Positions 12,001 to 15,000 of a stretch of DNA of 64,000 bases are shown here, piece after piece (the first letter of the stretch is position 1; each line of letters opens with the position of its first letter). Position numbers: made by a program. Source of the stretch: a plasmid; NCBI RefSeq assembly GCF_988242995.1, contig NZ_OZ547044.1; one strand, 5' to 3'.

Positions 12001-15000
12001 TCCCCATTGACAGGCCAGGGACAACCGCGAGCGGTTGCCCCCACCCTGCCAACAGGTCGGCAGTTGCCCACAATACCACCGGCTCAAGCAACAGGATTTT
12101 TTTATATTTTTGTTTTTAAAAGAAAAAAGCGGCCGTGCTCTAGTGGCATGGCCGCGTTACGTGGTCCTATCAGGGGCTTGTGGCTCTTGCGCCTCCTCGG
12201 ATCGACACAAGTGCCGATCACTGCGGCGGGGCGCTCCTGGCTCAAGCTGAAAAGCGATCAGTATCCGCACCAGTGGCGACGGCGTTCCCTCCACGCATTC
12301 GGGCCGGGCCTCCACTCAACGGCTAACCCCTCGGCCATGAGGGTTTGCCCCACGTCCCGCCCGTCGATCAGCAGGTGAACAAGGCGGCGGTCGTACTTGT
12401 CGGCTTGGCCGGAATCGACAACCTCGATGCGCTGAGCGTTGGCAACCAGTTCGCGGAGGCGTGCGGTTGCCTCGCGGCCCTTCGTCAGCTCGGCGTCGCA
12501 CCTGGGCTTGTAGGTTTCCGGGGTGTCAATCGACAGCAGGCGCAAGCGTTGACCGTTGTATCGTAACCGTCCGGTGATTCCACCTTGAGCCAAATCGCCT
12601 GCCGACCAAAAGGCTCGAAGCTTACCACCCGGTCGATTCCGGTCAGATCCAGAAACGCCTCGTCGATGGAGTAGACATCCACTCTCGATGCCAGAGCTTC
12701 CAGGGTCGTCATCACCCGCCGGCTTATATCGCCATTTGTGTGGAATAGAGAATCAATTGGAACGGGGGCTTTGCTCGCCCCCCCTTGAACTTCTCATACC
12801 CAACCTGTTTGGCTATAGCTACTGAGGAGATCGCGGTGGCCCACCAAATCTTCCGGTCATCCTGTTCAATTACACCGCTAGCCGTACCCAGGAGGTGCCG
12901 CAGCGCCTCCTGGAGGCAGAAAGGCGTCGAGCGTATAGGTTGCTGGGCATGCGCGGCGCAAGTTCATCAGAAAACTCAATCCAAGGGCAAGATCGGCCGA
13001 GCGGAGATGGCACTGACTCTTATCAACAAGCTCTACGGCATCGAGCGCGACATGGAAGAGGCGGGCGATGCCCAGCGATACCAGACGCGCCAGTCGCAAA
13101 GCCAGGCTTTCCTGGAGCAACTGAAAGCTAGGCTGGACAAAACCCCTCCCCAGGTCACGTCGTCAAAGTGCCTTGGGCAAGCAATCAATTGCCTTGCGAG
13201 CAACTGGTTAAAGCTGATCCGCTACATCGAAAGGGGGACACCTGCCCATCGACAACAACCCTGCCGAGCGGGCGAGCCACCTTCTCATGTACATATGACC
13301 AAAGCGTCGCCCGTCTCCTCCCGTTATGTCATGCCTACCCACGACGGAGTATTGACGGTCTCTGTGCGCCAGAGCATAGTTTTCCCGAAGGGCGCTTAGG
13401 TACATATCTTCATGTGCTGTCCAGGCGCAGTTGCGTTTAGAGTACGTGTCCAATCAGTTTTAAATGGGTGTGAACATGAGAGCAGAAACTGAATCGCGGA
13501 TTTTTTCGGTGGATGAATATGTTCGTCCGTCTAACGGCGAACCGATTCGTTCGGTTGTTCTGGAAACCAATGACTCTGTCGTCGTTGTTTGGCACGCCCA
13601 CCCTGGGCAGGAAATAGCTTCCCATGTACATCCTCACGGCCAAGATACTTGGACGGTTATCTCAGGTGAAGCCGAATATCATCAAGGTAACGGCATAGTC
13701 ACTCATCTTAAAGCTGGAGATATTGCGATCGCAAAACCTGGGCAGGTACATGGTGCAATGAACTCTGGCCCCGAACCTTTTATATTTGTTTCAGTGGTTG
13801 CGCCGGGCAATGCCGGTTTTGCGTTGGCTGAGAAATAGGCGAAAGGCCTGAGAGGAAACTGATGAATACACGATTATTTACGTTCGCTGGTGGAGAAACG
13901 GGTGTTTGGCGCGTTGTTCGGATGGATGCCGTGGCGGGAGCCCCTCTCCCTGGAATCCCCCGGCTCGACGTAGCCGCTGGCTCTGTTTCGCCGCAGCCTT
14001 TGGGCACCAAATGGCTTCTTCGCGGGATAACGAGTAACGAGCGTTATGTCGTGCGTGAAGAGAAGGATCGTCTCGTGGCGAAGCAGCCAAGTTTGGGTCG
14101 AGCAGAGGCCACCTGTGCCGCCCTGATCCCTATCCGGAAAAACCCCTCATGGTGGGGACTGGCTCAAGACGAACGCCGGAAGATTTTTGAGGAGCAGTCC
14201 CGTCACATTCACATTGGGCTCCAATATCTCCCTGCTGTGGCCCGTCGTCTCCACCATTGTCGGGACCTGGGCGAGAGCGAACCCTTCGACTTCTTGACGT
14301 GGTTCGAATATTCCCCGTCTGATGAGCCGGGCTTTAACAGGCTTTTGGCCGAACTCCGGGCCTCGGTGGAGTGGAAGTATGTCGACAGAGAAATCGACAT
14401 CCGGCTAGTGCATGAGCCGGCCTAGTATCAGGTTTAACTGCGATCTCCGTGCGGCATACACCTGCGACACCCGCAGCCCAGCAAAGCCCGGAAAATCTAG
14501 TGTGTCTAATAACTTAGGAGTAACACGACACGTATGCCTAGCGAGCCACCAGTCGCTTGGGAAATTTTCTACTTATGGCCTCCTCTTTCTCTCATCGATC
14601 TCCCAGGGCATATCCTGCCGTCTAGAGTTGGCACCTTGTCCAGCTTTCGAAGAAGGCTCTCCATACACGTCCGGCCTACACCTTGTTAGGTATGGCCGGT
14701 TTCCAGTTGTGGGGCAATAGCTCGTCGATGGCGTTGTTCTTCTGTGTCGGCAGGCGAGTCAGCACATCCTTCAGGTAGGCATAGGGATCATGCCGATTCA
14801 GCTTCGCTGACTGTATTAGGGTCATGACCGCAGCCGCACGTTGACCACTGCGCAGTGAACCCGCAAACAGCCAATTGCTGCGCCCCAGCGCCCAGGGTCG
14901 GATCTGGTTTTCCACCCAGTTGTTGTCGATGGGCACAGCGCCATCGTCCAGGTAGCGCGTCAGCGCTTCCCAACGTTTGAGGCTGTAATCCAGGGCTTTG

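Follow-up and report, generated by a model that had tools for sequence, protein, structure and literature searches.

A nuc remnant and a umuC relic in a resistance-plasmid module very probably mark an IS66-family transposition scar

We analysed a 64,000-nucleotide stretch of plasmid DNA (the window; contig NZ_OZ547044.1, assembly GCF_988242995.1), in which a nuclease-like and a UmuC-like reading frame overlap. There is little doubt in our minds that this locus is a transposition scar and not a frameshifted gene. Judged by their sequences, remnants of nuc and umuC lie side by side and both appear to be non-functional. The resistance-plasmid module to which this relic belongs is widespread, and the relic itself is ordinary and offers nothing mechanistically new.

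Results

The nuclease gene is truncated

An earlier note on this DNA had proposed an SNase-like core, and this was borne out by a Pfam search, in which the 111-aa ORF at 12258-12593 (minus strand) matched the SNase family PF00565 at 41.7 bits, where the cut-off is 21, with an E-value of 1.7e-10. A phmmer search with the intact relative against SNase structures gave E ~1e-15. The ORF contains nuc, a 5'-truncated thermonuclease-family gene at 12258-12562 on the minus strand, which comprises codons 33-133 plus the stop codon. Positions 12562-12258 were 100% identical at the nucleotide level to an intact nuc (P0005) on a Pokkaliibacter plasmid-like contig (L004), where the gene encodes 133 aa with a signal peptide. 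Over 1,116 bp, window positions 12563-11448 were 99.73% identical to L004:10097-11212. Each of three intact relatives (P0005, P0007 and P0012) carries S(V/I)(I/V)DGDTV(R/K)Y(N/Q)GQRLRL in a single frame. The window contains nothing that corresponds to residues 1-32 of P0005 (MIRPALFALAILASLPAAAGTQSLSVIDGDTV), and a check of all frames found no DNA encoding the N-terminus of Nuc (signal peptide plus SVIDGDTV). When aligned to staphylococcal nuclease, the lost IDGDTV corresponds to SNase residues 18-23, and equivalents of the catalytic residues Arg35, Asp40, Thr41, Glu43 and Arg87 are kept. Since the remnant has neither its native start codon and signal peptide nor the first β-strand and the Asp21-equivalent Ca2+ ligand, it is very probably inactive. 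The OB-fold domain of the window copy is incomplete. In a tblastn search of PLSDB, all 453 matches of at least 99% (453/453) began at Nuc residue 32, and no PLSDB record had an intact nuc allele or a nuc::transposon progenitor.

The truncated gene could still be a real, expressed cytoplasmic nuclease that has been retained for its function in hundreds of plasmids, with a predicted product of 95 aa from TTG 12545 (the PGAP call) or 111 aa from TTG 12593. The intact open frame, the PGAP label 'thermonuclease family protein' and the five retained catalytic equivalents speak for such a product. We nevertheless regard it as highly improbable given the missing signal peptide, first β-strand and Asp21-equivalent. 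A search for promoters reading into the nuc remnant found no sigma-70-like consensus, and the remnant is linked to cld only via the IS26 unit described below. Recency accounts for its conservation: neighbouring non-coding DNA is likewise at least 99.6% identical, and junk ORFs are conserved to the same degree.

The nuclease remnant ends at the tip of a transposon repeat

Identity to nuc ends at 12563, which is the outer tip of a 29-bp IS66-type repeat. This right terminal inverted repeat (GTAACCGTCCGGTGATTCCACCTTGAGCC; 12563-12591, plus strand) is an inverted match at 26/29 positions to the left end of the complete transposon, GTAAGCGTCCGGTGATCCCATCTTGAGCC, and both ends start with GTAA. It is unique in the window, with 0 copies expected by chance. 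The junction indicates that a transposon inserted into nuc at codon 32/33 and that the missing 5' part is gone rather than shifted.

The earlier note had instead read the locus as a single frameshifted nuclease gene, with a possible SNase N-terminal element (PDGYDTTV) in the other frame and a umuC/mucB remnant joined to its upstream side, all part of one backbone in decay. There are indeed two ORFs that overlap in different frames, and PDGYDTTV superficially resembles IDGDTV. A frameshifted pseudogene keeps both halves in different frames, but here the 5' 96 bp of nuc, which encode residues 1-32 in the intact gene, are missing in all frames, and the retained 101 codons plus stop form a single frame identical to the intact gene. 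Moreover, the identity starts abruptly at codon 33, at a repeat tip that is common to five other sites with different flanks. The upstream residues in the nuc frame, GGITGRL, are encoded by the repeat. The string PDGYDTTV does occur in the frame of the 76-aa ORF, but it straddles the repeat/nuc junction: PDGY derives from the last bases of the inverted repeat and DTTV from out-of-frame nuc codons 33-36. Its likeness to the SNase motif is due to chance, and the DNA for the real motif is absent. The 111-aa ORF takes its first residues from the repeat and the 76-aa ORF its 'WLKVESPDGY' tail, and both ORFs are probably accidental read-throughs across it. The two remnants are adjacent, as had been noted. 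They are not a decayed fusion from one backbone, since the repeat separates them and their origins differ, the umuC piece being of Marinobacter type and lying within the transposon. A frameshift is accordingly refuted as an account of the nuclease gene, and we consider this reading very unlikely indeed.

An indel or chimeric join in one assembly is the least credible account of all: single-member proteins (P0003, P0011, P0018, P0020 and P0022) are alternative frame fusions of the same DNA that resemble indel errors in other assemblies, but hundreds of plasmids that were sequenced independently carry an identical stretch, and the same transposon end occurs in complete elements of marine genomes. 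Read-level correction, which had been proposed as a check, is irrelevant because 471/475 matching PLSDB records are at least 99% identical.

The umuC relic lies inside the transposon

The UmuC-type motif SIDEAFLDLTG claimed earlier was confirmed in the 76-aa ORF at 12485-12715 (minus strand), which contains VYSIDEAFLDLTG and overlaps the SNase ORF in another frame. The match of this ORF to the Pfam IMS family PF00817 was weak (E=0.006; 17 bits, below the cut-off of 23.2) and covered 28/148 profile positions, neither above threshold nor spanning the full-length catalytic core. The relic itself occupies about 12600-12735 (136 bp, minus strand) and consists of ~45 codons (GDISRRVMTTLEALASRVDVYSIDEAFLDLTGIDRVVSFEPFGRQ) from the interior of a Y-family polymerase gene, without its start or end. 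Because only these 45 internal codons are present, it cannot encode a polymerase. Compared with intact Marinobacter umuC, the relic showed 82-93% amino acid identity over 44-45 residues and 79-84% nucleotide identity, and the homology stopped on both sides. It was found in every transposon copy, and its nearest intact relatives were all Marinobacter umuC. These comparisons indicate that the relic travels inside the transposon and is of Marinobacter-type origin.

The relic was probably left behind when the transposon formed: a larger IS-flanked segment of a Marinobacter-like replicon would have lost the DNA from umuC codon ~125 to a point just within the right-hand IS end. In two Marinobacter species, umuC is followed ~6 kb downstream by a related IS (87% nucleotide identity) that has the orientation predicted. 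This route into the right end is no more than a model; we recovered no stand-alone IS copy that includes the right end, and the copy on Marinobacter nauticus pMAQU02 is truncated at position 1862. We also considered the relic as a leftover of the original neighbourhood of cld. In favour of this, a Pseudomonas stutzeri region has cld and cupin beside UV-resistance genes (PMC3735179), and PMC9751292 lists umuD and a DNA polymerase among cld-linked genes. The idea found no support in the 77 other umuC loci retrieved, of which 0/77 had cld or cupin within 8 kb.

A 4,525-bp IS66-family transposon carries cld and cupin

Complete copies of the transposon have the order left inverted repeat (IRL), tnpA, tnpB, tnpC, cld, cupin, a second IS66-family transposase fragment, the umuC relic and right inverted repeat (IRR). 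TnpA, TnpB and TnpC (125, 111 and 514 aa) match PF01527, PF05717 and PF03050, respectively. In the window, positions 15774-12563 correspond to L008:6939-10150 with 99.97% identity. They include the 3' two-thirds of tnpC (14676-15774, minus strand; 1,099 bp, from ~codon 150 to the stop), which is cut by IS26, and the passenger genes cld, of the chlorite dismutase family (13862-14425, plus strand), and cupin, encoding a cupin domain (13464-13838, plus strand). Only the right repeat is kept; the window lacks tnpA, tnpB and the left inverted repeat. The second transposase fragment (12923-13237, plus strand) matched Pfam DDE_Tnp_IS66 with E=1.9e-15 at profile positions 143-250 of 284. By BLASTP it corresponds to TnpC residues about 323-427 with 26% identity to the transposon's own TnpC. 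Such low protein identity rules it out as a copy of the same IS, and it therefore comes from a different, divergent IS66-family member.

The transposon moves as a single unit and generates target duplications of 8 bp. Perfect duplications flank the complete 4,525-bp element, 99.98% identical among copies, at five independent and unrelated sites: TGCCCTGC in a Hahellaceae MAG, GCTGAGCG in Marinobacter manganoxydans, CATCTCGC in Alcanivorax sp., TAATCGGC in M. goseongensis, and GTACCTGT in a tniR/tniQ-tniB-type mercury transposon of E. coli and Klebsiella plasmids. A sixth flank was seen in Vibrio. The same transposon end occurs in Marinobacter, Alcanivorax, Vibrio and the Hahellaceae MAG. In the complete copies, tnpA, tnpB and a DDE-type tnpC are present together with the repeats and the 8-bp duplication, as in the IS66 family. 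A direct progenitor, nuc::transposon with the 5' half of nuc and the left-end duplication GATACAAC, was not found, and the predicted left junction (nuc 5' part + GATACAAC + IRL; ...ACCGTGCGATACAAC|GTAAGCGTCCGGTGATCCC...) had 0 exact matches in JGI metagenome contigs. A divergent copy on E. coli pP43A-1 (CP044292) was rejected as an ancestral form: stretches that are 100% identical take turns with others that cannot be aligned, and this copy is therefore probably rearranged or poorly assembled.

The nuclease remnant belongs to a foreign plasmid backbone

Downstream of nuc, positions 11448-12257 (minus strand) are a non-coding fragment of a foreign conjugative-plasmid backbone, 99.7% identical to L004:10403-11212 with 3 mismatches, all non-coding. 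A 16-bp iteron (CCGTCTATTACCCACC) occurs here in six copies, four at 21-bp spacing (11756-11834) and two inverted at 11650 and 11704, and A+T-rich blocks lie at about 11890-11922 and 12095-12130. We regard the cluster as a putative oriV or RepA-binding region; no rep gene adjoins it. In L004, the same iteron recurs beside repA. The gene set of this source backbone (VirB T4SS, H-NS, nuc, resolvase, PF10134 RepA, korA, kfrB and klcB) resembles that of IncW plasmids. The best near-full-length PLSDB matches of the L004 RepA (PF10134), on Comamonas and Xanthomonas plasmids, were ~63% identical, which does not establish the backbone as IncW. The segment had been described as backbone-derived; nuc comes from this foreign marine plasmid backbone, and the IncFII(K)/FIB host plasmid is not its source.

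Two directly oriented IS26 copies bound the segment

The left arm of the unit is a partial IS26 (11185-11447, minus strand; 263 bp, element positions 558-820), whose terminal repeat GGCACTGTTGCAAA abuts the backbone fragment at 11447/11448 and which has in turn been truncated by a complete IS26 at 10365-11184. The right arm is a complete IS26 at 15775-16594 (minus strand), in the same orientation as the partial copy. Its terminal repeat begins at 15775 and the second boundary thus lies at 15774/5. The terminal repeats of two directly oriented IS26 copies therefore abut the segment on both sides. The same unit was published as 'IS26-cld-IS26' in the Klebsiella pneumoniae IncF plasmids pKPN-c22, p6234-198.371kb and pKPSH11 (PMC7319535). 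An 'IS26 composite' with cld and cupin was described by Clark et al. 2013 (PMC3735179), and thermonuclease, IS66 and IS26 genes were listed as cld-linked (PMC9751292).

Discussion

The comparisons show that a nuc encoding 133 aa with a signal peptide stood next to the iteron cluster on a conjugative backbone like that of Pokkaliibacter sp. MBI-7, and that the right end of the 4,525-bp IS66-family transposon interrupts it between codons 32 and 33. Later IS26 events, in an inferred order, would have deleted the left 1.3 kb of the transposon along with the 5' end of nuc and cut the backbone fragment beyond the iterons. The outcome would have been the 4.3-kb segment 11448-15774 with a directly oriented IS26 copy on either side, the IS26-cld-IS26 unit that now occurs widely in resistance plasmids of Klebsiella, E. 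coli and Enterobacter.

More tentatively, and with somewhat less than even confidence, we propose that the 4,525-bp element may be an unnamed, currently active passenger IS that brought a single identical cld-cupin pair out of Marinobacter-like marine bacteria to marine plasmids and a mercury transposon, and then via IS26 to hundreds of clinical Enterobacteriaceae plasmids. If so, the nuc junction in the window would be a fossil of the marine-plasmid step. A search confined to the published literature found no name for the element, and chlorite dismutase and IS66 appeared together nowhere beyond a table entry.

Published accounts of IS26-cld-IS26 concern the same DNA, with two direct IS26 copies bracketing cld, cupin and 'genes of unknown function', but did not dissect the interior. 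Here the 'unknown' part resolves into a marine-plasmid fragment with iterons and nuc, and the right 71% of the IS66-family transposon. Dissecting this interior identified an IS66-family element that moves the cld-cupin module, and suggests a route from marine gammaproteobacteria to a marine conjugative plasmid and, by IS26 capture, into clinical plasmids. The thermonuclease-cld 'link' of comparative-genomic studies is a hitch-hiking artefact of one insertion event. Likewise, hundreds of RefSeq/GenBank plasmids carry the labels 'thermonuclease family protein' and 'protein SamB/UmuC' for what are really a truncated gene and a 45-codon relic.

The element shares tnpA-tnpB-tnpC (HTH_Tnp_1, TnpB_IS66 and DDE_Tnp_IS66) with IS66-family IS and with passenger-carrying 'transporter' IS and unit transposons. 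As in IS66-family IS, its 29-bp repeats begin with GTAA and 8-bp duplications are present at five sites. In contrast to them, its tnpC is separated from the right repeat by 2.1 kb of passenger and relic sequence; we looked for a second right-hand repeat directly after tnpC, as in a classical two-IS composite, and found none.

Nuc of the IncW plasmid pSa/R388, reportedly described by Close & Kado in 1992, is said to be a staphylococcal-nuclease homologue encoded beside the replication origin. Similarly, L004 is predicted to encode a small secreted SNase-family protein by iterons, resolvase and repA, along with a VirB-type T4SS and kor/kfr/klc genes. In contrast to pSa/R388, the source backbone is a marine plasmid whose RepA is at most about 63% identical, over nearly its full length, to those in PLSDB, and the window copy of nuc is 5'-truncated.

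The umuC relic shares the SIDEAFLDLTG catalytic-motif region with UmuC/MucB/SamB/RumB of plasmids and ICEs. It differs from them in retaining 45 of ~420 codons, in falling below the Pfam threshold and in having no umuD partner, and it is of Marinobacter type, not an enterobacterial plasmid mucB/samB. In GenBank, the ORF containing the relic is labelled 'protein SamB' or 'UmuC'.

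Truncation of the nuclease gene

Two overlapping ORFs lie on the minus strand: a 111-aa SNase-like ORF with a TTG start (12593-12258), which matched the Pfam SNase family (41.7 bits, E=1.7e-10), and a 76-aa umuC-like ORF (12715-12485; N-terminal start MMTTLEALASRVDVYSIDEAFLDLTG), whose match to the Y-family polymerase profile PF00817 was weak (17 bits, under cut-off). They are labelled 'thermonuclease family protein' and 'protein SamB/UmuC' in GenBank/RefSeq. The earlier note had correctly placed an SNase core and a polymerase-like ORF in different frames here. The surrounding 701 bp (12100-12800) match 475 PLSDB plasmid records, with hosts mostly Klebsiella, E. 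coli and Enterobacter, and 471 of these are at least 99% identical; the two-frame arrangement is not a sequencing error.

A protein search yielded intact relatives 133 aa in length. P0005 of Pokkaliibacter sp. MBI-7 (MIRPALFALAILASLPAAAGTQSLSVIDGDTVRYNGQRLRLLSIDTPE…) shares its layout with P0007 (80% identical) and P0012 (67%), in which a signal-peptide-like N-terminus, S(V/I)(I/V)DGDTV and then (R/K)Y(N/Q)GQRLRL follow in a single frame. By BLASTN, window 12563-11448 corresponds to positions 10097-11212 of the Pokkaliibacter contig (L004), with 99.73% identity over 1,116 bp, and all three mismatches fall downstream of nuc. The window keeps 101 codons and the stop of nuc, uninterrupted and 100% identical to the L004 gene. 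Window and L004 are unrelated upstream of codon 33. The gene is thus truncated and not, as had been proposed, frameshifted. Every PLSDB nuc match of at least 99% starts at residue 32. The lost segment covers IDGDTV, residues 18-23 in the alignment to staphylococcal nuclease, where this stretch contains the Ca2+ ligand Asp21. The string PDGYDTTV, previously read as an SNase N-terminal element, does occur in the frame of the 76-aa ORF. Its likeness to the SNase N-terminus is a coincidence, since PDGY comes from the last bases of a transposon repeat and the remainder from an out-of-frame reading of nuc codons 33-36.

L004 carries VirB-type T4SS genes, H-NS, nuc, a resolvase, PF10134 RepA, KorA, KfrB and KlcB, and looks like a conjugative-plasmid backbone. 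The SLT/H-NS/nuc order is also found in Vibrio parahaemolyticus contigs. In E. coli pP43A-1 (CP044292.1; L003:5290-5560), a mosaic copy of the nuc remnant alternates window-identical (100%) stretches with unalignable ones of similar length; this may be a rearrangement or an assembly/polishing artefact.

An IS66-family transposon interrupts nuc

Proteins containing the umuC-like piece, such as P0024 (Vibrio) and P0060 (Hahellaceae MAG), share the C-terminal …FGRQAIWLKVESPDGY and diverge after it. Their contigs have the same cld-cupin region beside IS66-family tnpA-tnpB-tnpC. Self-comparison of the Hahellaceae locus (L008) revealed a 29-bp inverted repeat bounding this unit, with the left copy at 5626 (GTAAGCGTCCGGTGATCCCATCTTGAGCC) and the right copy ending at 10150 (GTAACCGTCCGGTGATTCCACCTTGAGCC); 4,525 bp lie between the repeats, and a perfect duplication of 8 bp, TGCCCTGC, flanks the unit. 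Window 12563-12591 is the right-end repeat, a sequence that occurs only once in the window and is not expected by chance, and the flank past its tip (GATACAAC…) is nuc from codon 33 onward. When one genome per species was scanned, three further genomes had the complete unit at 99.98% identity, with a different perfect duplication of 8 bp at each site: GCTGAGCG in Marinobacter manganoxydans, CATCTCGC in Alcanivorax sp. DSM 26293 and TAATCGGC in M. goseongensis. With its GTAA termini, 8-bp duplications and three-gene module, all as in IS66-family elements, the unit behaves as a member of that family. It behaves as one IS with passenger DNA, because no inverted repeat was found directly after tnpC. 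A repeat-like sequence at L008:10302-10316 (GTAACCGTCCGATAA; 2 mismatches in 15), 150 bp past the right end and adjoining an integrase gene, may be due to chance or be an earlier-insertion relic.

The complete unit is also present in six Enterobacteriaceae plasmids. In the two examined, it is embedded in a mercury-resistance transposon that has tniR and tniQ-tniB genes, and the duplication is GTACCTGT. Since all 4,525 bp are found in K. pneumoniae pKp1198 and E. coli pYUSHP6-3 (L091 and L092, 7001-11525 in each), between tniQ and a tniR-like recombinase gene, Enterobacteriaceae plasmids already have a copy that is intact and possibly mobile. No name for this IS66-family cld-cupin transposon was found in the searchable literature; only its anatomy and apparent activity are mildly new.

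Origin of the umuC relic and function of the remnants

In protein and DNA alignments, umuC homology was limited to 45 codons (GDIS…–…FGRQ, ~12735-12600). All of the closest intact genes are umuC from Marinobacter (82-93% aa identity over 44-45 residues, 79-84% nt), compared to at most 69% for umuC of Pantoea and other genera. Since every transposon copy has it just within the right repeat, the relic came along with the transposon; neither the nuc backbone nor the IncF host plasmid ever contained it. Both pieces are indeed remnants, as the earlier note had it, without the frameshift or the joining of umuC to nuc in one backbone.

Beside the relic, at 12923-13237, is an internal piece (105 residues) of another IS66-family transposase; this piece shares 26% identity with the TnpC of the unit itself. 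Between it and the relic, at 12762-12785, is a G+C-rich hairpin, GGGGGCTTTGCTCGCCCCC. In M. salexigens and M. orientalis, umuC is followed ~6 kb downstream by a related IS (87% nt) of the same orientation; these IS66-family elements (L036:14079-16162 and L038:15324-16135, respectively) are 85-87% identical to the left part of the transposon, 6-7 kb downstream of umuC. This layout could be the ancestral arrangement for capture of the relic. It fits a model, which we infer, in which an IS-flanked Marinobacter segment would have lost the stretch between umuC codon ~125 and a point just within the right-hand IS end.

Five single-member database proteins from other assemblies (P0003, P0011, P0018, P0020 and P0022) join nuc, the repeat and the umuC relic in differing frames. 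Indel errors in low-coverage assemblies of this DNA appear to have produced them, and homology searches could be misled by such entries.

That the nuc remnant is still functional is very improbable. From sequence, we judged both ORFs to be non-functional because the nuc remnant is without a start, signal peptide and first strand, no sigma-70 consensus promoter reading into it was found, and its perfect conservation is equalled in adjoining non-coding and junk DNA.

IS26 boundaries and the host plasmid

IS26 terminal repeats meet the segment at 11447/11448 and 15774/15775. The flanking copies share orientation, the left one being cut to 263 bp by another IS26. What is left of the transposon in the window is its right 3,212 bp, which differs from the marine copies by one mismatch. 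Having lost the left repeat, tnpA, tnpB and ~150 codons from the start of tnpC, the remnant is not able to move by itself. The 'IS26 composite' described by Clark et al. (PMC3735179) corresponds to this segment. Barnum and Coates reported a thermonuclease family protein, IS66-family transposase and IS26 transposase among cld-linked genes (PMC9751292), a linkage that our analysis explains by hitch-hiking. The nuc/umuC feature is an ordinary transposon/IS26 scar within a known module.

The window is part of a conjugative Klebsiella pneumoniae plasmid of the IncFII(K)/IncFIB type; traI, traX, finO and repA are present, and after them comes a resistance region rich in IS26 (aac(3)-IIe, tet(A), blaOXA-1). 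The nuc-iteron fragment is foreign to this backbone. A 16-bp iteron, CCGTCTATTACCCACC, occurs six times at 11650-11834 without an adjoining rep gene. The Pokkaliibacter plasmid has this repeat too (L004:10826-11010 and 13648-13799), and there it is also found on either side of the 3' end of repA. By titrating RepA, such an orphan cluster could cause incompatibility with that marine plasmid family.

IS26 mosaicism extends over the entire resistance region. Seven complete IS26 copies (10365-11184, 15775-16594, 18656-19475, 22076-22895, 25082-25901, 39382-40201 and 61000-61819) and the 263-bp partial copy (11185-11447) were observed in the 64 kb. In the IncFII repA region (~8780-10381), a near-identical RefSeq plasmid (L090) has 'plasmid replication initiator RepA' annotated for two CDSs in succession, at 8836-9387 (183 aa) and 9380-10393 (337 aa). 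IS26 starts directly behind the latter, and repA may be split, duplicated or a hybrid here.
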